Below, in pieces: positions 1-20,267 of a stretch of DNA of 43,311 bases. The position numbers were made by a program, and so were the translations under genes. The DNA comes from a virus (Duplodnaviria; Heunggongvirae; Uroviricota; Caudoviricetes). The notes under the pieces were generated by a model. The model was not told where the DNA came from, did no database searches, and worked only from the letters and a program-made list of their open reading frames with translations. The stretch covers positions 1 to 43,311 of the IMG/VR virus record IMGVR_UViG_2537561670_000003. The stretch is one strand, 5' to 3'. How positions within the stretch are numbered: the first letter of the stretch is position 1; each line of letters starts with the position of its first letter.

Positions 1-390
1 TCACATCACCGGGCAGTCATCAAACTCCGCATTCCTGGCATCATTAATGATGTACGTGATCACTCCAAATATAGCGGGTGCAGAACTGTAACCATCATCA
101 TCTGCTGGCAGCGCTTCCCTTCTCCCGTTATCCAGATTAACCAGGTGCGGCTGAGGATGAGTCCGATATCGCTTGATCCTGAATTCCCCGTCGATTGCAC
201 ATATCAGCAGTGAACCATCGCAGGCAGTAAGTGACGCATCCACAACAAGCAACGCTCCCTGGATTATCCCTTCCCTGAAATGTGAACGCGATGCCCGCAT
301 GAAATAAGTCGCTGCGGGCTGACTGATTAGCTGCTGATCGAGGGAGATTCGTGTTTCAACATAATCTGCCGCAGGTGAAGGAAATCCCAT
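1..390 (-). CDS. UmuD'-like S24-family protein (UmuD homolog beginning at the equivalent of the UmuD' N-terminus)
   Basis: Translation MGFPSPAADYVE...EFRIKRY aligns with E. coli UmuD from its Gly25 cleavage product onward (recalled sequence). ATG at 388-390 has a GAGGG Shine-Dalgarno 7 nt upstream. The longer TTG-initiated ORF to 462 has no UmuD-like N-terminal arm and would cover the LexA-like box. Stop at 1-3. Confidence 0.6.
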   Translation of the reverse strand: MGFPSPAADYVETRISLDQQLISQPAATYFMRASRSHFREGIIQGALLVVDASLTACDGSLLICAIDGEFRIKRYRTHPQPHLVNLDNGRREALPADDDGYSSAPAIFGVITYIINDARNAEFDDCPVM

Positions 391-435
391 GTTTACGCCC
401 TCTCTTGAATACCGGATAAAAACACAGTATAAATA

Positions 436-451
436 CTGTATATCCATCCAG
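436..451. promoter_or_regulatory. Putative LexA (SOS) box CTGTATATCCATCCAG between divergent umuD'-like and dinI-like genes
   Basis: Fits CTGT-N8-ACAG with the CTG...CAG core intact. Lies about 18 nt upstream of the dinI-like ATG and about 45 nt upstream of the umuD'-like ATG. Confidence 0.45.
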
Positions 452-468
452 CAAAGAGGCAATGAGCA

Positions 469-711
469 ATGTTCGTGGAACTCGTTTATGACAAAAGGAA
501 TTTTGATGGTCTGCCCGGTGCAAAAGATATCATTCTGGGCGAGTTAACTAAGAGAGTTCACCGGATCTTCCCCGATGCTGATGTTCGGGTTAAACCGATG
601 ATGACACTGCCGGCGATCAACACTGACGCCAGCAAGCATGAGAAGGAACAGATAAGCCGTACTGTTCAGGAAATGTTTGAAGAGGCTGAATTCTGGTTAG
701 TGAGTGAGTAA
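469..711 (+). CDS. DinI-family DNA-damage-inducible protein
   Basis: 80 aa. Matches E. coli DinI in length and pattern (recalled): ...FPD...ISR.VQE..EEAEFWLVSE versus DinI ...FPD...ISEILQETWESADDWFVSE. AGAGG SD 9 nt upstream of ATG. Confidence 0.75.
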   Translation: MFVELVYDKRNFDGLPGAKDIILGELTKRVHRIFPDADVRVKPMMTLPAINTDASKHEKEQISRTVQEMFEEAEFWLVSE

Positions 712-765
712 AGATTTTCAATGCCCGCCACAGTTACGTATTGATTATGCTGTGGAGGATATTCA

Positions 766-791
766 TTTTCGTAAACGTTGGTTTGGGAGAA
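766..791. repeat. hix/gix-like 26-bp invertase recombination site (copy B, read on minus strand TTCTCCCAAACC-AA-CGTTTACGAAAA)
   Basis: Inverted copy of the site at 2581-2606: identical 12-bp left half plus AA core. Resembles Hin hixL TTCTTGAAAACCAAGGTTTTTGATAA (recalled). Confidence 0.55.
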
Positions 792-1127
792 GCGGCAAAA
801 CGGAATGTGGGAACAGGGGAAAATCAGATACCAGATATGTCTGCATTTCCATCTGGCAATAACTGGTTTCAGTTACCAAGTGGACATATCGTTCAGATAT
901 TTTCCATGAACGTTCTTGGTGCAGATGCTAATGGCACGTCAGCTAATTACCCCATTGCTTTTCCAACAACGATGATTGCTGTCAGTGCTCTATGGTCTGA
1001 TGGGACTGTAGCAAATGCACCGACATACAAGATGATGGGGAACACGACTAACAGAACAACTTTGACGATAAAAGTATCAGCCAGCTCAGGTACTTACGGG
1101 ACAATGATTATTGCGGTGGGACGATAA
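780..1127 (+). CDS. Alternative tail-fibre C-terminal cassette (Sv'-like), promoterless and start-less in this orientation
   Basis: ORF 741..1127 carries the NxGLGE junction motif at the hix-like site. Inversion would fuse it in frame to the constant part of the fibre gene (checked codon by codon). Confidence 0.5.
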   Translation, partial: GLGEAAKRNVGTGENQIPDMSAFPSGNNWFQLPSGHIVQIFSMNVLGADANGTSANYPIAFPTTMIAVSALWSDGTVANAPTYKMMGNTTNRTTLTIKVSASSGTYGTMIIAVGR

Positions 1128-1128
1128 T

Positions 1129-1572
1129 ATGAATAAATACAGTTACTCTCCTTCAGAAAATGCCTTTTATGCTGTTGCGTTAAAAAATACCTATGAATTG
1201 AGTGGCACATGGCCAGCTGATGCATTAGATATTCCTGATGACATTTCTGTAAAATATATGGCGGAACCGCCACAAGGGAAAATCCGAGTTGCAGGGGAAA
1301 ATGGTTTTCCCACATGGGCTGAAATACCTCCACCATCACATGAGGAACTTATTGAACAGGCCGAATCAGAGAGGCAATTATTGATTAACCAGGCCAACGA
1401 ATACATGAACAGTAAACAATGGCCCGGTAAAGCCGCTATTGGTCGTCTGAAAGGCGAGGAACTGGCACAATATAATTCGTGGCTGGATTATCTGGACGCA
1501 CTGGAACTGGTCGATACTTCCGGTACGCCCGATATTGAATGGCCTACGCCTCCGGCAGTTCAGGCCAGATGA
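1129..1572 (+). CDS. Tail fibre assembly protein (Tfa'/U'-like), paired with the alternative fibre cassette
   Basis: C-terminal motif WLDYLDALELVDTSGTPDIEWPTPP is typical of Tfa chaperones. ATG at 1129 follows the Sv' stop. Convergent with and overlapping the other tfa. Confidence 0.7.
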   Translation: MNKYSYSPSENAFYAVALKNTYELSGTWPADALDIPDDISVKYMAEPPQGKIRVAGENGFPTWAEIPPPSHEELIEQAESERQLLINQANEYMNSKQWPGKAAIGRLKGEELAQYNSWLDYLDALELVDTSGTPDIEWPTPPAVQAR

Positions 1573-2137
1573 CATCCGGCGCGGTGCTGGTATCTGTTGC
1601 AGTCACCGCGTCAATGTAATCCAGCACGGCGTTAAGTCGGGTTGTTTCTGCCTGAGTCAGTTTCCGTCCGGCCTGTAATTTCAGCTGAATCAGACTAATG
1701 GAAGCCATTGCTGCATCAATCAGTGATTGGCGCTGTGCTTCTGCCGCTTCTACTGAGGCACCGTGTTGTGCCTCAGTATCTGTCACCCATTTCTCACCAT
1801 CCCATTTATCATATGGCGTTAACGGTGAAAGCGTGACATAACCGTTTTTGATGGCACCGATATAATCCACTGTAACAGCTGCGCCATTTTCGATTGAGTA
1901 AACAGTCTCATTGCGATGGTCTTCCTCATGGCTCCATCCCTTACCTGTAAATACTGCCACTCTTCCCGGAATGTTTTCGTCCGGGTCAATACCAGTGGAA
2001 CAGGCGGGCATACTTACGCCAGTATTAATATATTCATCAGACCAGCCCGTATATTCAGACGTTACTGCATCATAATAAAAACAACGCATATCACCCGGCA
2101 CTGCAGCCAGCCCATTTTCATCAAAAACAGGTTTCAT
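1544..2137 (-). CDS. tfa: Tail fibre assembly protein Tfa
   Basis: 197 aa. Strong resemblance to lambda Tfa (recalled), including the C-terminal ...LDYIDAV..TDTSTAPDVIWPELP. Start overlaps the fibre stop (TAATG). Confidence 0.8.
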   Translation of the reverse strand: MKPVFDENGLAAVPGDMRCFYYDAVTSEYTGWSDEYINTGVSMPACSTGIDPDENIPGRVAVFTGKGWSHEEDHRNETVYSIENGAAVTVDYIGAIKNGYVTLSPLTPYDKWDGEKWVTDTEAQHGASVEAAEAQRQSLIDAAMASISLIQLKLQAGRKLTQAETTRLNAVLDYIDAVTATDTSTAPDVIWPELPEA

Positions 2138-3069
2138 TATTTAGCCCTCACCAGAAAGTTAAATGCAATATTTCGCGGTCTGACAGCAACAAAATTCACA
2201 CCATCACCCACAGAGTTACTGTTGAAATTAAATCGTGAAAATCCTGGCTGATTTCCGGCGATGCCATCATGAAAGTTAATTGCGTGTCCAGCACCTCCGC
2301 CTATATTCCCGGCAAACTGAGAAAAGTTTGTAGCTTCCTGCCAGCTTAATAATTCGCGACCACCATCTGCACCTCGCCCGTCATCCCAGACACGAATGAA
2401 ATCACCGCGGGCTTCAGGTAATACCAGCGAAGGAAACACTTTCGCCAGCACAGGATAATCAGTGGCAGAGAATTTCGCGCCGTTGAACTTCAAAAACACC
2501 ATACTGGACCAGCTGTCGATTACAGTATTTGGCATTGCAGCGGACGGCCAGAAGAACGGAACGCCAATAGCTGGAGAACCTTCTCCCAAACCAAGGTTTG
2601 TGCGAGCGTCTGCGGCATTCGTTGCGCCGGTTCCGCCGTCTGCGACAGTAACCGCACCGTTGCTCCCTTTCTGCGCAAGTTTACCGATGCCTGGGATGGT
2701 TACGGCGGTGCCGTTGATGGTAACTGTGATGCTTTGGTTTGCTGAGGTGGTGGCGAACGTCTCCCACGCGCCAATATTCTCGTCGTACTCTTTGATGAGC
2801 TGTGACATGGCCTGCGCCAGGCCGTCGACTGAGATATTGTCCGACACAAGGATTCCATACTTCTGGCCGCTCAGCGCCGGGGAAACTGCTGGCGTAACCG
2901 TCATTGACGTGGCGCTGTTCACGGATGAAATCTGAAACAGCTGCACCGGGTTAGACATCACGATAATCGTCTGGCCAGCGCGGACCTGGCTGGCGGGAGC
3001 TGTCCAGTTTGTGCCGGAGCCGGTTGCGGTATTTCCGTTAATAGAGATAGTTCCGGTGCTATAAATCAT
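2137..3069 (-). CDS. stf: Side tail fibre protein, C-terminal portion (Stf-like), currently expressed variable domain
   Basis: 310 aa. C-terminal ...NIAFNFLVRAK resembles the lambda Stf C-terminus. Contains the ARTNLGLGE junction at the hix-like site. Frame is open upstream of the Met without an ATG, suggesting truncation. Confidence 0.7.
   Translation of the reverse strand: MIYSTGTISINGNTATGSGTNWTAPASQVRAGQTIIVMSNPVQLFQISSVNSATSMTVTPAVSPALSGQKYGILVSDNISVDGLAQAMSQLIKEYDENIGAWETFATTSANQSITVTINGTAVTIPGIGKLAQKGSNGAVTVADGGTGATNAADARTNLGLGEGSPAIGVPFFWPSAAMPNTVIDSWSSMVFLKFNGAKFSATDYPVLAKVFPSLVLPEARGDFIRVWDDGRGADGGRELLSWQEATNFSQFAGNIGGGAGHAINFHDGIAGNQPGFSRFNFNSNSVGDGVNFVAVRPRNIAFNFLVRAK
2581..2606. 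repeat. hix/gix-like 26-bp invertase recombination site (copy A, TTCTCCCAAACC-AA-GGTTTGTGCGAG)
   Basis: Imperfect palindrome with 2-bp AA core, inside the tail fibre coding sequence at the NLGLGE codons. Confidence 0.55.
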
Positions 3070-3385
3070 AACAACTCCTAAATTTAGACAACATGAAGCC
3101 CGGAGAGGTATATAACCCTCACCAGAAATAATTTCTGAATTGGTTTTTAATACATGTTGGGCAACGCCAGTGTTGGCATAGCTATAGTTGTATCAAATGC
3201 CATTGACCACCCACCCAAATAATAATTGCCGACTACTTTATTCCTTTCTGCTCTGACATTCCCACCTGTCATTACAATTCCTTTATACCTAATATTTCCG
3301 TAACCACCAACGTGTCGACAGTTAGCCCCGGTATAAACAATCTGGCAAAATTCATCACCAATATTCAGGTTCGCATTGGCGATAT

Positions 3386-3493
3386 TTATTGTCCCATCAA
3401 AAATGAATGGCTTCGTGCAAGTAAGAAGACGTTTGCGTTGACGATTGGTTTATTCAATCCATCAACTAAAATATCATGTAAACGAATTGCCAT
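3386..3493 (-). pseudogene. Remnant of side tail fibre N-terminus (stf 5' end), interrupted after 35 codons
   Basis: Minus-strand translation MAIRLHDILVDGLNKPIVNANVFLLARSHSF resembles the lambda Stf N-terminus MAVKISGVLKDGTGKPVQNCTIQLKARRN (recalled). Followed by stops and frame changes before the 2137..3069 ORF. Confidence 0.35.
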
Positions 3494-3574
3494 AACATTT
3501 CCCACTTTATTTTACTTACTCAACACAACAAGTATATTAAAATTGAACCTTGTCAACAACACAAAGGAGTCCCA

Positions 3575-3808
3575 ATGAAACTCGCTCTAATTATGCTGCC
3601 ATTATGTCTGTCCCTCACTGCATGTGGTAATGGTTTAAATACCGGTAAACCAAATTCCGGTGTCATTCCAAAACCTTTGGATCGAGATGGTAACGGTTCT
3701 TTAATTTATGATACCGAAAACCTTCCAATGACGGGGCAGTGGTGTCACGAGATTGATCACGAATACCGACGAATCGGTAGCCCTTCTAACTGTGTTATAG
3801 ACTACTAA
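3575..3808 (+). CDS. Small lipoprotein (signal peptide plus lipobox LTAC), probable moron
   Basis: MKLALIMLPLCLSLTAC... with perfect AAGGAG SD 6 nt upstream. Opposite strand to the tail operon, in an AT-rich stretch. Confidence 0.6.
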   Translation: MKLALIMLPLCLSLTACGNGLNTGKPNSGVIPKPLDRDGNGSLIYDTENLPMTGQWCHEIDHEYRRIGSPSNCVIDY

Positions 3809-3810
3809 AT

Positions 3811-3836
3811 ATTAACCCCTCAAAAGAGGGGTTAAT
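3811..3836. terminator. Bidirectional hairpin terminator between lipoprotein gene and J
   Basis: Perfect 11-bp stem ATTAACCCCTC-AAAA-GAGGGGTTAAT flanked by A/T runs, between convergent stop codons. Confidence 0.45.
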
Positions 3837-3839
3837 ATT

Positions 3840-6800
3840 TTAACCTGTGAATGAACCAGATCCGTGTGATACTATGATAGTAGGCGAAGAAATTGACGCA
3901 CCCCTGTTATTTTGAGCGGACACTTTAATACGCACTGTTACGTTTGGACCTGTTACAACCGCAGAATGCATGATAAGTCTCTCCATGTCTTGCACGGATG
4001 AACCACTCTCATTGCCGTTAATGTCGATTGTTCCTGCACCATTACCTTTAACGTTTGCTATAACACAGACGTGTCTTGCGTGCCCAGAACTGGATGAATC
4101 ATTATAAGTCATTACCTTTTCTAAATATCCGTCACTAGACCGACTCACATTCGTCCCTGTGTGCATATTTGCAATGTCCCCGATAAAACTTTGGGCTTCC
4201 ACAGTCCCTTTGAATTTACCGCTTGTTGCTTGGATCTCACCAGTAAAGCTACCGCCACTAGCATATACTACACCTCTGACGGTCACATTGTTGAATTCAG
4301 CATCTCCAGCTTTATTCAACTTCCAACCAGCAGAACCAGCTGCATAGTTGTTGGACTGGATATAGTTACCGATTTTTGCGTTCTCAATGGTGCCGTCCTG
4401 GATGAAGCTGGCCCGGATGAATGTCTGCCCGTTCTGGATCACGAACGGCAAAGCTACGCTATTTCCGGCTGCCGTGGTGACGGCGAAGCGGTCAGCCAGG
4501 AAGATAACCTGCGACTGCATGCCGGATGGCGTATTCTCCACGCCGATACCCATCCCCGCGGCGTAATACTGCCCGTTGCTGGAGACACCAACCTTGATGT
4601 TGTACATCGCGCTGAGTTCGCCATTAACGTTGGCTATAGCCTGAGCGTTAGTGGTGATGGCGGAGGTATGCCCGTTCACGGTCGCCGTGATGCCGTTTAT
4701 CTGCGTGGCGGTGGCCTGCTGATAGTCGGAGAGCGTCTGATTCAGGCTGTTGATGGATGCCTTGTTGCCGTTGACGTCCGTCTGCAGGCTCAGCAATGAA
4801 CGTGCTGTGGCTTCCTTCTCACTGACGATCACCTCGTCGAGACGGTCCAGATTCGCGCTGTTGCCGGCGACCGATGCAGAAAGGGTTTTACGCGTGGCCA
4901 CCTGAGCGAGGTTGGCCTGGATTATCGCAATTGCAGAGTTCTTCACCCCGCCCGTCATGCCGTCCATAGAAACGCTGATGTTGTCGATTCGCTGGCCCAG
5001 GGCGGTATCAGCCGTCGCAACGGTCTGCTCAAGCTGACTGAGTGAAGACGAAACATTCCCGACCGTGCTGGAAAGCTCATTAACGCTGGTCTGAACCTTC
5101 CCGACGTCCTGGGCATTTTTGGCGATATCTTTCGCTTGCTGCTCCAGTTCGTCGTTGGCCTGTTTGATATCGTTAGCCATGCCAGCAATTTTTTCGTTGC
5201 TGTCCACCGCGTTCTCGATCAGGTCTTTGAACGTTTCCGACTCTTTCATATCCTCCAGAATGTCATTAGTTATTTCGCTGACATCTATCGAGGACGTGCC
5301 CATGATCCAGTCGGTCCAGTCCCCGGCGTTACCGATACGGTCAATCAGGCGCGCGCGGTACCACTGGCGAACGCCGGCAGGCATGGGGCCATGCTGATAA
5401 TCTGCAGCCGGGTACGGCACCAGGACCAGCAGTTCAGGATTGGCGTAGTCGGCAGTTGTGGCGCGCTGAATCTCTGTATAGGCCGTGTCGCCTGAGCCAT
5501 CCGGAAATTTCCAGGTCAGGTCGATATGCCAGACCACATCTTCGGTCGCCAGGAAGTTGAGCGGAGTACCCGGTTTTCCCGTTTTACCGGAGAGATAAGT
5601 TGTTTCACCGTATCCCCATGGTGACGACGTATCCTGCGCATTCAGCGCCCGTACGCGCACGTCATAGCTGCCCGAATAAATGCCCTGAACCGAGAAACCC
5701 TGCGCGCTGGTAACCGGAACGTTTATCCAGTCCCCGTTGTCCTTACGCCACTGGGCAACATACCGGATTGCGCCCTCTACCTTATCCCATGACACGTCCA
5801 GGCTTGCTACAGTCAGCCCCTGAGACACATGATCGCTCTCAGTCACCACGATATTCTTCGGAGCAGACAGGACGCTTATCGGCGTGACGGTGATCGGGGG
5901 AGACTCGACCCGAACGCCGTCATCGATGTAACGATATTTGTTTGGATCGTGCTGAACGGCCGTAATAGTGAAACCGCCTGTACTGTCGTCGTTAGCCGCG
6001 ATTGAGGTGACCCTGAAGTACTGTATTGCGAGGTTATCACTGTCTATCGCCCAAACAGCGCCCGCCACAGGAACCTGACTGAATGCCGTAGCCACCGTCA
6101 CCGTTTTTTTATCGGCGCTCACCGCGCTGATTGTCCGCGTCTGGGCTTTTCCGTCGGGAAGGTTAACCACCAGCCGGTCTTTCGCCGCGTAGTCTATTTC
6201 TCGATCGAGGGTAATTTGGCGGCCGTTGGCCGCGCTTATACGGCCCCCGTTCTCCTTACCAGAGCGGAAAGGATCGGCGACACCGATAATTTCAGCGGGC
6301 AAAGGGATATAACCGTCCAGCCCCACGCCAAACGATACGGTCCCGTCTTTGGCATTGGAGAGCAATACCCAGCGACCGCGTCGGTGCGCTTCACTTTGCG
6401 AGGTGCAGCCGATTGCGGTCAGGGACGTCTGCCGGACGTCGTAACGTTCTACAAGCGCCGAATCGTAAACCCCCTCAACGGTATCGCTGTAATGGTTCTG
6501 CGGATCGGACCAGGACACCAGGCAGGAGCTGTAGCGATTCTTGTATGAGCCGCCCGCATAAGTAAACAGCCCATCGATAACGTTTGAGACGTTATAAACC
6601 CAGTCAACATCGTCCTGCGGGACGTCTGCCTGGACATAAATCTGATCGTTTCCCCAGAACGTTATTCCACGAAATACCGCGGCGAGATCGTTAAGTACCT
6701 GCCAGGCGTCCTCCTGGCTCTGAATGAAAACGTTGCAGGTGAAACGCGGTTCGGTGCCACCGGCCCCGTCGGAAACCATTTCGTCACAGTACTGGGCGAT

Positions 6801-13200: not shown

Positions 13201-13407
13201 CATATCTGCGGCAGCCGCCGCGCCAGCGTCACCCACGGTTTTAAACGCAGCCGCCTGCCGCTCTGAAGCGCGCTGCATTCGCGTCTGGACTTTTTCAGAG
13301 TCCTCAGCCATCCCGGTTAGCTGGCCCTTTATGCGGGCAACCTGCTCACTAAACGTGGCGCTGTCGACGTCAAGGTTGATGACCAGATCGCTAATCTGCT
13401 GGGCCAT
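10270..13407 (-). CDS. H: Tail tape measure protein H
   Basis: 1045 aa, alanine/glutamine-rich coiled-coil character, located between G/T and M. Confidence 0.85.
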
Positions 13408-13663
13408 ATCGGATACCTCCTGTTATCCCCTCAGCTGCGGCCATCAGCGCATCATCATCCGGCTCGTCATCGCTGATGACGATACCGGAAGGAGAAAGCA
13501 GGCTGAAATGTGCGGGGGTAAGTTCCGGGTCGCGGAAGAAAAGAGTGGAGATGGAATAAAGCAGCTCTGAGAAATGCGCATCGAGCTGAGCGTCCTGAAA
13601 ATAATGCTCCCGGTAGAACTGGTGCCAGTCGCCCAGCTCAGTGGAAGTCATTCCAGCCAGCAT
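13391..13663 (-). CDS. T: Tail assembly chaperone T segment (expected to be made as G-T fusion by -1 frameshift)
   Basis: By ORF-track coordinates it is in the -1 frame relative to G and lies between G and H, the conserved lambdoid arrangement. An A-rich GGAAAAG stretch lies near the G 3' end. Confidence 0.5.
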
Positions 13664-18531: not shown

Positions 18532-20031
18532 TTACTTTTTGCGCTGGCTTTCGGACGGTGGCGCGCCCGGTTCTTTGGCTTCGGCACTGGTGCCTCCTTT
18601 ATCATTGGCGGGGTCGGTGTCAAACACCAGGCCCTGTTCACGGTTCTCGTCAACCTCAGCTTTACGGCGTGACTTAACATCATCCGGGTTGCGACCGCTG
18701 GCACGTATCCAGTCGGATTCAGTAGCAGCACCGCCGCGGATCTGCGTTTTCCAGGCATTCGCTTCTTTAACGGGATCAATCCACGGCATAACGGGCCCCG
18801 AATAAACCGCGTTATAAAGCGAGTCCATATCAATGCCTCTCGGCAGCTTGATTTCTCCGGCAGCAATAGCCATCTTGAGCCAGGCTCGGTACATGGGCCG
18901 GGTCACTGAACCGATGAACCAGTCCTGAAGAATCAGATAGCCGTCGGTTGACTCGACAAGCTCCTGCCGCTGGGCACTGTACGTTCCGTTGTAGTTTCTG
19001 GATGTGCTGGAAAAGCTGAGGCGACTGCCGGCGGACACGGCACGCAGCTGTCCGTTACGAAAAGATTCGAGGTTAGGGTTCGGGCGATCGGATTTAATCA
19101 TCCCGATTTCTTCCCCGGCCTGCAGTTCGTCATAGAGCATACCGGGCTGAATCATCAGCTCGCGGTCATCGCTGCTTGAATCAGAATCGAAGCTCTGTCC
19201 GTCGCCTTTTTTGATATACATGCCGAGTGCCGCAGCAATTCTGGCAGCAGTAAGCTCCGAGTCCTCGTATTCTTTCAGCGCGCTCAGACGCATCAGAACA
19301 CCAGACAAAAGAGACGTTCCGCGGGTCTGGTGCAGGCGTCGGGTGAATTTGAGATGCAGCATGTTCTCTGCATCTATCTCTTTGGTATCAAACTGACGCC
19401 CGGATACTGGCAGGCTTTTATAGACCTGATATTTTTTCGGGCGTCCCCAGTTATCGACAAAAACGCCCTGATTGAGCTGGGTGGCAGCATCGCTGTTCAT
19501 CGGCACAAAGTCCGGCTCCAGCGCTTCCAGCCAGAACGGCACGCCAGCAACCGGCTGAAGACCATTTCCGGTACCGCGAACCAGCTGAGCAAATACCTCA
19601 CCGTCCCGGAGCCACGTTCGCAGCATCAGCCGCTCCAGCATTGGGCGGGTAAACTGGGTTGTGACATCTGGCCTTACGGACCATTCGCCCCACTTTCGGC
19701 GGATATCAGTGGCCAGCTTTTTAGCGATCTTCCCGTTACTCAGCATCGGATGCGGTTCAACTATGATGCCCTTCGCACCCACCACCCTTTCTTCCAGCTT
19801 GTCGAAAACGCCGATCACCAGATCGTGGTTGTTATCCAGCCAGCGCGCCTGCTGCCTCAGCGAAACCGCCCCCATCTGGCTGAGCTGATCGGCTGAACGA
19901 TTTTCCTTCTGGGCTTTGTGGGTACGCGTTTGCTTTACCGCCTCATACGCTTTAATAACTGCGCGGGCACGCAGGCGTGAGGCTTTCCAGCCTGGTGAAA
20001 ACAGGCCAATCGCATCATCTAAAAAACTCAT
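18532..20031 (-). CDS. B: Portal protein (lambda gpB family)
   Basis: 499 aa, located between W and the protease-capsid gene, as in lambda. Confidence 0.8.
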   Translation of the reverse strand: MSFLDDAIGLFSPGWKASRLRARAVIKAYEAVKQTRTHKAQKENRSADQLSQMGAVSLRQQARWLDNNHDLVIGVFDKLEERVVGAKGIIVEPHPMLSNGKIAKKLATDIRRKWGEWSVRPDVTTQFTRPMLERLMLRTWLRDGEVFAQLVRGTGNGLQPVAGVPFWLEALEPDFVPMNSDAATQLNQGVFVDNWGRPKKYQVYKSLPVSGRQFDTKEIDAENMLHLKFTRRLHQTRGTSLLSGVLMRLSALKEYEDSELTAARIAAALGMYIKKGDGQSFDSDSSSDDRELMIQPGMLYDELQAGEEIGMIKSDRPNPNLESFRNGQLRAVSAGSRLSFSSTSRNYNGTYSAQRQELVESTDGYLILQDWFIGSVTRPMYRAWLKMAIAAGEIKLPRGIDMDSLYNAVYSGPVMPWIDPVKEANAWKTQIRGGAATESDWIRASGRNPDDVKSRRKAEVDENREQGLVFDTDPANDKGGTSAEAKEPGAPPSESQRKK

Positions 20032-20267
20032 CCAAACCTCGCCAGCCTGTAGCCGGGTCGCCCACGGCGTTTGTTATTGAGCGTTGCCAGTCGTCGCTCC
20101 CATTCCTGACGGCCTTTTCTGATTTCCGACAGGTTTTCGAGCGTCATCTGCTGCCCGTTGAAAGTGATTGATTTCCCCTCCAGAACAGACAGCTCGGCTG
20201 CAGCATAGCGGTCGATCATGTTTTGAATATCTGCTGGATTCACACCCAACCTCCTGACGAAGACCAC
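20028..20267 (-). CDS. W: Head-tail connector protein W-like
   Basis: 79 aa between terminase A and portal; C-terminal RRGRPG resembles lambda gpW (recalled). Confidence 0.55.
   Translation of the reverse strand: MVFVRRLGVNPADIQNMIDRYAAAELSVLEGKSITFNGQQMTLENLSEIRKGRQEWERRLATLNNKRRGRPGYRLARFG

Follow-up and report, generated by a model that had tools for sequence, protein, structure and literature searches.

The tail-fibre locus described here is very probably a real invertible segment of the Din family (Gin/Cin/Pin/Hin-type) that is now frozen and is not driven in trans. The window, that is the whole stretch of 43,311 nucleotides that was analysed, is a complete lambdoid prophage of Escherichia coli Nissle 1917 (EcN), integrated beside yecD. 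In an intact Din system, a small serine invertase encoded just outside one of two 26-bp sites binds both of them, becomes active when Fis occupies an enhancer located in or close to the beginning of its own gene and exchanges strands at a 2-bp core. In the intact counterpart of the EcN locus, a 1.8-kb segment would flip so as to join the constant 5' part of the fibre gene either to Sv and Tfa or to Sv' and Tfa', and the joining of the alternative tip would alter the host range of the phage. EcN has kept both sites and both cassettes intact but lacks the invertase gene, its leader and hence presumably the enhancer, with the 3' end of dinI and a 52-bp spacer now adjoining the left site on its outer side; the phage would be restricted to the Sv (GSPAIG...) fibre, and Sv'/Tfa' would be a silent, still undecayed relic.

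The two crossover sites are 26 bp each and lie in opposite orientation. The left one, TTTTCGTAAACG TT GGTTTGGGAGAA, occupies 766..791 and was recognised from the inverted repeat and from comparison with e14; the right one, TTCTCCCAAACC AA GGTTTGTGCGAG, occupies 2581..2606, within the fibre gene, and there codes for ..TNLGLGE... The 12-bp inner half is identical in both, as is the AA/TT core, and the two have the form of Din-family sites, i.e. two inverted 26-bp imperfect dyads with 12-bp halves and an identical 2-bp core. The top inverted repeat returned by a repeat search was 773-792/2580-2599 (20 nt, 95% complementary), and the 14-mer TTCTCCCAAACCAA has two exact copies in the window, one per strand, compared with 0.30 matches at two or fewer mismatches in the shuffled-sequence control. 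In the inner-to-outer direction, the left site reads TTCTCCCAAACC AA CGTTTACGAAAA, which agrees at 25/26 positions with the pinE-proximal crossover site of the e14 prophage of strain MG1655; the match of the right site to the e14 sites is 23/26. The left site is the one that adjoins the invertase in relatives. Coordinates, repeat search and e14 match thus concur with the Gin/Pin-type inverted sites, with their identical half and AA core, that had been proposed from the sequence alone; their closest relatives, however, are the pix sites of e14 (25/26) and not hixL, to which a resemblance had been proposed at the same time.

Both copies of the identical inner half and core code for a conserved peptide motif, and the inverted repeat might on this ground be a mere by-product of the ..LGLGE.. 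coding motif shared by two fibre genes that has never served as a recombination site. We consider this extremely improbable. The outer half of the left site, which is non-coding, is identical at 11/12 positions to the experimentally defined e14 site, and since the match extends over this non-coding half, conservation of fibre coding sequence cannot explain it. Moreover, an invertase gene lies 55-70 bp from the equivalent left site in relatives, the same pair of cassettes is found in both orientations where an invertase exists, and spacing, core and dyad symmetry suit a 26-bp Din site (compared with Mu gix). On these sequence comparisons, the by-product explanation may be regarded as already refuted in practice. 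A chance or coding-only repeat was likewise rejected from the e14 site match and the 14-mer shuffle control.

The cassettes flanked by these sites have the organisation expected of such a segment. The N-terminal, constant portion of the side tail-fibre gene (2595..3069, minus strand) lies outside the segment and is of the HK97/mEp043 stf type, being 89-96% identical in nucleotides to the stf genes of these two phages, and the variable C-terminal part, Sv (GSPAIGVPFFWP...LVRAK; 2137..2594, minus strand), lies inside it; the whole expressed fibre gene spans 2137..3069 on the minus strand in the ORF list. Directly downstream of it is the gene for the expressed tail-fibre assembly chaperone, tfa (U-like; 1544..2137, minus strand, ORF list; Pfam Caudo_TAP, E = 5e-27). 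On the plus strand, the silent alternative C-terminus Sv' (780..1127; Pfam Gp53-like_C) comprises 115 codons from GLGE to the stop and lacks a constant part in the present orientation, and it is followed by the gene for its partner, the silent chaperone tfa' (U'-like; 1129..1572, plus strand; Caudo_TAP, E = 4e-32). Inversion at the core, performed in silico, fuses the constant part in frame to Sv' (...ARTNLGLGEAAKRNVGTGENQ...) and yields a 274-aa fibre that is identical at 259/274 positions (94.5%) to, and colinear with, the annotated expressed fibre of EC2001, and the tfa' product is identical at 145/147 positions (98.6%) to the chaperone that follows this EC2001 fibre. The two convergent tfa genes, the two alternative fibre C-termini and the in-frame fusion claimed in the sequence-only reading are all borne out, as the segment holds alternative convergent fibre 3' ends, each with a chaperone, that are fused in frame to the constant 5' part on inversion. 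Sv' and tfa' contain no stop or frameshift and both sites are perfect, which fits a recent loss of the invertase but also continued use.

In relatives, a serine invertase of 183-184 aa is encoded between dinI and the left site, and an invertase gene is found at the expected place in AH01, MS 115-1, EC2001, 21AR0133 and e14. By contrast, EcN has no serine invertase gene (Resolvase plus C-terminal HTH_7, about 180-200 aa) beside or inside the segment. In a blastn comparison with AH01, homology stops at position 689 of the window and restarts at 764, so that 754 bp of the AH01 locus (3961-4714, with the recombinase at 4111-4662 and its leader) have no counterpart in EcN, which carries 74 bp instead (690..763, made up of the last codons of dinI and the 52-bp spacer). 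Two invertases from relatives, compared by tblastn with the six frames of the window, gave a best E of 1.7, and the annotation of the whole prophage includes, besides an excisionase, a tyrosine integrase as the only recombinase. An invertase hidden elsewhere in the window is ruled out by this six-frame search and the prophage annotation, and the earlier statement that the window lacks an invertase gene stands. The AH01-homologous stretch in which a Din-family enhancer sits (the 5' part of the invertase gene) is absent from EcN, and we infer from this position and from what is known of the family that the recombinational enhancer would have been lost as well; a rough search near the left site for pairs of Fis motifs was negative in EcN, but says little about a newly arisen enhancer, because its positive controls were poorly recovered too (one pair in pinE, of uncertain relevance, and 0/4 others).

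The slot of the invertase is filled by a DinI-like gene (469..711, plus strand; Pfam DinI, E = 1.1e-18) and the spacer 3' of it, as judged by synteny with AH01, MS 115-1 and EC2001, in which the order is dinI, invertase, site. A gene for a UmuD'/HumD-like S24 peptidase (1..390, minus strand, 1-447 according to PGAP; Pfam Peptidase_S24, E = 1.9e-8; labelled S24 family peptidase/HumD family in RefSeq) is divergent from it, and the Pfam matches and the synteny agree with the dinI-like/umuD'-like pair that had been noted in place of the invertase. The peptidase gene forms the end of the prophage that adjoins yecD and lies outside the switch. Direct reading of the divergent promoter region shared by the two genes revealed a candidate LexA box, TACTGTATATCCATCCAGCA (434..453), with the CTG-N10-CAG pattern of the LexA-box consensus. 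The 52-bp spacer contains no terminator according to a consensus scan, its predicted RNA fold is not significant (z-score -1.3), and Rfam and tRNA scans of the window gave no matches.

This arrangement raises the speculative and, in our opinion, very unlikely possibility that the silent cassette serves a purpose in its own right, in that SOS-regulated read-through from dinI into Sv' and tfa' would produce a free receptor-binding domain with its chaperone, which would block a receptor. An analogy exists in the e14 chimera StfE2, which blocks phage T2 (PMC12529663). The LexA-box-like sequence upstream of dinI is compatible with such a product, as are the location of dinI, Sv' and tfa' on the same strand with no terminator between them in the consensus scan and a reading frame, open from possible TTG or GTG start codons at 741/747, that continues into Sv'; against it, the Sv' frame has no convincing ribosome-binding site or start codon. 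Furthermore, 027_SK3 carries a quite different silent tip at the same junction (44/128 identity), and selection for a specific silent product is disfavoured because of this difference.

The frozen segment remains the preferred explanation, and its distribution among genomes was considered with the EcN-lineage chromosomes and 5426 E. coli genomes. Using blastn (word size 11), we searched with two composite queries, one joining an EcN-specific anchor to pinE, the MS 115-1-type gene and Mu gin, and the other containing pinQ and the AH01-type and EC2001-type genes. The six invertase probes, which represent five clades, had no match in 19/19 EcN-lineage chromosomes, where only the place of the anchor was found; this search was made at the DNA level on chromosomes, the small EcN plasmids being separate records, and is blind to a gene whose identity to each of the six probes is below about 65-70%. 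The search of the rest of the genome that the sequence-only reading had called for was in this way carried out with DNA probes. As for orientation, all 19 EcN-lineage assemblies (several of which come from one study) match the native order in one piece and none the flipped order, assemblies showing the majority orientation only, so that a flipped minority of a few per cent would be invisible. None of the 5426 genomes covers at least 80% of the flipped query, and both orientations were not seen to coexist among isolates. The invertase-less junction is present in only 22 E. coli genomes, all with the native left junction, and the flipped left junction was found in only two genomes, both with an invertase gene inserted. 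Scans for exact copies of the EcN-type left site were negative in JGI metagenomes and in the GTDB species representatives and gave a single contig in IMG/VR, which is of the G3/10 type and has the same orientation.

The sequence-only reading had left the choice between a frozen switch and one driven in trans. In the latter case, a Din-family invertase from another prophage, a plasmid or a superinfecting phage would operate the segment, perhaps rarely and without the usual enhancer, and we regard this as unlikely. Both sites and both cassettes are intact, and members of the family complement each other, as when PinQ of prophage Qin flips the e14 segment (PMC12529663), so that by analogy an invertase from a superinfecting phage or a plasmid could in principle act on the EcN segment. 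Most E. coli genomes match the composite queries in some part, be it anchor or probes (4870 and 4953 of 5426), and the invertase-less module persists with 9-13% nucleotide divergence and both sites kept in G3/10 and an IMG/VR contig. In CP53, homology to the invertase-less junction ends exactly at the crossover dinucleotide, and no intact homologue was found for the sequence past the core; this breakpoint could be a trace of recombination at such an orphan site. Weighing against a supply in trans are the lack of such invertase DNA in the 19 EcN-lineage chromosomes, the single orientation of their assemblies with no flipped invertase-less locus, and the loss of the region that carries the enhancer, as wild-type invertases of the Din class require an enhancer that is occupied by Fis and lies about 100 bp from one of the sites (PMC3798978). 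In addition, in e14 strains from which pinE was deleted the P segment is locked despite the presence of pinQ and pinR, whereas the active P segment is inverted in 33% of 562 deposited genomes (PMC12529663). A joint explanation, according to which the module borrows the Din invertases of co-resident or superinfecting phages, with an SOS read-through tip as a further possibility, seems to us distinctly improbable; if it were true, the module would still flip in hosts with pin genes, be locked in the pin-less EcN and have passed from one tail module to another, siphovirus and myovirus, with its sites and cassettes all preserved intact.

We favour a frozen segment because the invertase gene and the enhancer-bearing stretch have been replaced, because no Din-family invertase DNA was detected in the EcN-lineage chromosomes, because all 19 assemblies have a single orientation and because 0/22 genomes with the invertase-less junction have a flipped left junction. 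With the invertase gene, leader and enhancer absent and no invertase of the family detectable in the EcN chromosome, the switch would be locked, and we infer from the loss of enhancer and invertase that inversion does not occur in EcN.

The literature search found no description of a tail-fibre switch locus in EcN; a PHAST region with mEp043 c-1 as best hit (region 4, Table S1 of Bury et al. 2018) probably overlaps this prophage. Among known systems, the P segment of e14 in E. coli K-12 (pinE, stfP/stfE, tfaP/tfaE) resembles the EcN locus in the type of its 26-bp sites (25/26 and 23/26), in the order constant fibre part, site, tip, chaperone, then chaperone', tip', site, in length (1.8 kb) and in its chaperone DNA (88% identical over 421 bp). 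However, in e14 pinE lies 54 bp beyond the site and the segment flips (PMC4272514, PMC12529663), whereas EcN has dinI and the spacer beside the site and no sign of flipping, in a lambdoid siphovirus with an stf of the HK97/mEp043 type. The lambdoid prophages of EC2001, MS 115-1 and 21AR0133 share with EcN the constant part of the fibre, a DUF6453 remnant and a J-type tail tip, but differ in having the Resolvase+HTH_7 invertase of 183-184 aa, of the MIYGYARVSTNHQ clade, and an outer half-site that differs accordingly. The EC2001 prophage also uses the yecD attachment site and shares the Sv'/tfa' cassette with EcN (94.5% and 98.6% amino acid identity), but lies in the opposite orientation, in which the tip left silent in EcN is expressed, and has its 184-aa invertase between dinI and the site. 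The G segment of Mu (gin) and the C segment of P1 (cin) belong to the same mechanism class, with the gene logic Sc/Sv/U/U'/Sv', 26-bp sites with a 2-bp core and an invertase just outside one site as in the intact relatives of EcN; EcN differs from both in having no invertase, and gixR of Mu agrees with the EcN right site at only 16/26 positions, with a GA instead of an AA core. Finally, 027_SK3, ABW_S38, G3/10 and IMG/VR UViG_2636415959 share the junction S24 peptidase-DinI-spacer-left site with EcN at 87-99% identity and have kept both sites. The 027_SK3 fibre is identical to that of EcN at 296/310 amino acids, its silent tip being different, whereas G3/10 and IMG/VR UViG_2636415959 carry other sequence past the cassette, annotated in G3/10 as a myovirus-type baseplate and tail module. 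The invertase-less module travels as a mosaic unit between different tail types.

The EcN locus is an ordinary, decayed and degenerate example of the well-known Din-type switch, and it leaves knowledge of Din-type inversion unchanged. EcN is widely used as a probiotic and as an engineering chassis, for which the practical meaning is modest: of the two tips that it encodes, the prophage seems to be capable of making one only, and any released particles would be tied to a fixed host range instead of a switching one. With regard to phage evolution, the locus offers a clean natural case of the decay of a host-range switch, in which invertase and enhancer would go first and the sites and the silent cassette stay.

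The window is one complete lambdoid prophage adjoining yecD in the annotation of NZ_CP007799.1, with an S24 peptidase gene at one end, excisionase and tyrosine integrase genes at the other and, in the middle, a lambda-like head and tail module, lysis genes, Q and a LexA-family repressor, among others; the invertible cassette is placed at its tail-fibre end. The first 3.6 kb of the 43.3-kb window align in a single piece, at 99.7-100% identity, with 19 assembled chromosomes of the Escherichia coli Nissle 1917 (EcN) lineage. RefSeq treats as incomplete the portal gene (18532-20055, N-terminus missing), a truncation that, if real, would make the prophage defective, and the gene for tail assembly protein T (13400-13663), where the usual G/GT frameshift has probably misled the annotation.

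The two 26-bp inverted sites with a shared half and an AA core proposed in the sequence-only reading are confirmed in the sequence at 766-791 (TTTTCGTAAACG TT GGTTTGGGAGAA) and 2581-2606 (TTCTCCCAAACC AA GGTTTGTGCGAG), where a repeat finder ranked them as the top inverted repeat of the region. The 14-mer made up of the inner half and core occurs at these two places alone in the window, one per strand, with 0.3 expected at up to two mismatches. The pinE-proximal site of the e14 P segment in MG1655 (TTCTCCCAAACC AA CGTTTATGAAAA) differs from the left EcN site by one mismatch, in the non-coding outer half, so that conserved coding for ..LGLGE.. is not enough to account for the likeness, and we therefore ruled it out as an explanation of the repeat; chance similarity in duplicated fibre sequence was refuted by the same alignment, the outer half being non-coding and near-identical to that of e14. 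The e14 repeats are experimentally established crossover sites (PMC12529663; PMC4272514). The gix sites of Mu have the same 12-2-12 build as the EcN sites, but only 16 of 26 positions agree. From these comparisons, we consider the EcN repeats to be real recombination sites.

Between the sites we found, as had been described, two alternative fibre C-termini and two convergent assembly genes: a C-terminal reading frame (780-1127, +; Pfam Gp53-like_C) is followed by tfa' (1129-1572, +), which faces tfa (1544-2137, -; both Caudo_TAP), and the segment also includes the 3' portion of the fibre gene (310 codons; 2137-3069, -). Inversion of 778-2594 in silico, with cuts at the 2-bp cores, fuses the constant part of the fibre to the other tip, in frame as predicted, through the junction ...ARTNLGLGEAAKRNVGTGENQ... 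and gives a 274-aa product. Beyond the fibre gene lies a truncated DUF6453 gene (3147-3410, -) reduced to its 87 C-terminal codons (profile positions 227-289 of 291), a pseudogene in RefSeq that is present as the same remnant in the EC2001 prophage. A short ORF (3575-3808, +; MKLALIMLPLCLSLTAC...) that encodes a lipoprotein signal and has no match in Pfam lies between the fibre gene and J and is followed by a perfect 15-bp hairpin (3807-3840); its place is held by the exclusion lipoprotein gene cor in the relatives 027_SK3 and mEp237.

Related E. coli prophages, those of AH01, MS 115-1, EC2001 and 21AR0133, share the cassette and also have a gene for a small serine recombinase, which lies between dinI and the left site and is transcribed in the direction leading away from the segment. 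The AH01 order is S24 peptidase, DinI, recombinase and site, and the AH01 and EC2001 recombinases have Resolvase and HTH_7 domains. The invertases adjoining such cassettes form two clades with about 60% DNA identity between them, one Pin/Gin-like (MLIGYVRVSTNDQ...; pinE, AH01) and one starting with MIYGYARVSTNHQ (MS 115-1, EC2001, mEp237, 21AR0133). The outer half-site varies with the invertase clade (CGTTTAYGAAAA versus CCTTTCAAATAT or CCTTTTTTATAA), and that of EcN is of the Pin type. Phage mEp237 has its clade-2 invertase with a single site and an Sv' stump. The most telling relative is the EC2001 prophage, which occupies the same yecD site as that of EcN, has kept its invertase and is in the opposite orientation, and hence expresses the fibre in its 274-aa form. 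This fibre is colinear with the in-silico EcN fusion and identical at 259 of 274 residues, and its chaperone is identical to the silent EcN tfa' product at 145 of 147; the silent EcN cassette is thus a genuine and intact alternative fibre tip.

In EcN, the position beside the left site holds the expected dinI-like/umuD'-like pair, formed by a DinI-like gene (469-711) and, in divergent orientation, a gene for a UmuD'/HumD-like S24 peptidase (1-390). Their shared promoter region carries a LexA-box pattern, CTG-N10-CAG (TACTGTATATCCATCCAGCA, 434-453), from which both genes are probably SOS-regulated. Over the S24 and dinI genes EcN is homologous to AH01, as far as position 689; homology returns at 764, which is 2 bases short of the site. 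Between these ends AH01 has 754 bp, among them the 552-bp invertase gene and its leader, and EcN has 74 bp in their place, made up of the final dinI codons and a spacer of 52 bp. A tblastn search with two invertase proteins found none in the window (best E = 1.7), in agreement with the absence noted earlier. For gin, cin and pin, the enhancer is established to lie inside the start of the invertase gene, so in EcN it should have been lost together with the gene. The Fis-binding enhancer of Din-type systems is found some 100 bp away from one of the sites (PMC3798978); when we scanned crudely and de novo for pairs of Fis motifs, enhancers were not convincingly recovered even in the positive controls.

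We then considered the rest of the genome, using composite DNA queries that combined a 2-kb EcN-specific J-gene anchor, which ranks EcN records first, with probes for pinE, the MS 115-1-type gene and Mu gin, or for pinQ (99% identical to pinR) and the AH01- and EC2001-type genes. Some part of these queries, anchor or probe, matched 4870 and 4953 of 5426 genomes, respectively. In all 19 EcN-lineage chromosomes the anchor was the sole matching place, and no Gin/Pin/Hin-family invertase DNA was detected with the six probes at a sensitivity of roughly 65-70% identity. The search covered chromosomes; the small EcN plasmids, separate records outside it, presumably carry replication and mobilisation functions only.

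The native order is in one piece in 19/19 EcN-lineage records, which are not fully independent (ten come from one study) and represent the majority state only, and the flipped query splits in each of them; at 80% query coverage or more, the flipped form occurs in 0/5426 genomes. By comparison, 33% of 562 deposited genomes are reported to have the active e14 segment in the inverted state (PMC12529663). The dinI-spacer-site junction was found in 22 genomes (the 19 above, 027_SK3, ABW_S38 and G3/10), and all 22, which are invertase-less, have the native left junction; the flipped left junction occurs in two genomes only, both with an invertase gene inserted there. When collections of metagenomes, species representatives and viruses were scanned for exact matches, one further contig emerged, of the G3/10 type and in the same orientation. 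Deletion of pinE locks the e14 segment despite the presence of pinQ and pinR (PMC12529663), which, in our view, would fit a need for a cis enhancer. Given this lock, the uniform orientation and the failure to detect other invertase DNA or any flipped invertase-less locus, we consider it most likely that the EcN switch is frozen with Sv expressed. Of the two possibilities left by the sequence-only reading, frozen or driven in trans, the former is thus favoured and the latter disfavoured.

The idea that orphan cassettes are sometimes flipped or rearranged in other hosts by invertases supplied in trans is nevertheless kept alive by several observations, beginning with the perfect sites and undecayed silent genes of EcN itself. 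The invertase-less module, with its S24 peptidase and DinI genes, the spacer and the site, recurs at 87-91% identity in G3/10 (3362-6300) and in IMG/VR UViG_2636415959, with both sites kept despite this 9-13% divergence and other sequence beyond the cassette; in G3/10, still at yecD, the annotation of this sequence is that of a myovirus-type module for baseplate and tail (YmfQ, gp47-like). The orphan cassette travels as a mosaic unit. Strain 027_SK3 has the same invertase-less junction and an expressed fibre identical to that of EcN at 296 of 310 residues, and its silent Sv' (3280-3654) is unrelated to window 780-1127 past the first ~20 residues (44/128 identity), so that cassettes must have been swapped around the conserved site. 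The degraded prophage remnant of E. coli CP53 (NZ_CP033096.1, 3953-4240) matches window 592-779 at 98.4% identity across part of dinI, the spacer of 52 bp and the outer half of the left site, and homology breaks off precisely at the end of the TT core; the 12 nt beyond it (CATTTACGAGCG) are half-site-like and precede an internal tfa fragment, and a search for the partner of this sequence beyond the core found none elsewhere. The break may reflect the past action of an invertase on an orphan site, or a coincidence. Such signs do not, however, demonstrate flipping in EcN, for which we retain the frozen state as the most likely one.

Remnants of invertible segments of this type are common in lambdoid phages. 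HK97 seems to carry one such stump, since its match (NC_002167.1, 19158-20864) runs ~50 bp past the tfa stop into the inverted 3' end of tfa' (window 1492-1543). The EcN locus shares its mechanism class and gene logic with the G segment of Mu, the C segment of P1 and the P segment of e14; it has the sites and cassette of the Din family and lacks an invertase and the occurrence of both orientations, and is therefore a degenerate member of this system. A literature search found no paper describing the locus, which we regard as a correct but ordinary, decayed example of a well-known system, of some practical relevance as EcN is both a probiotic and an engineering chassis.
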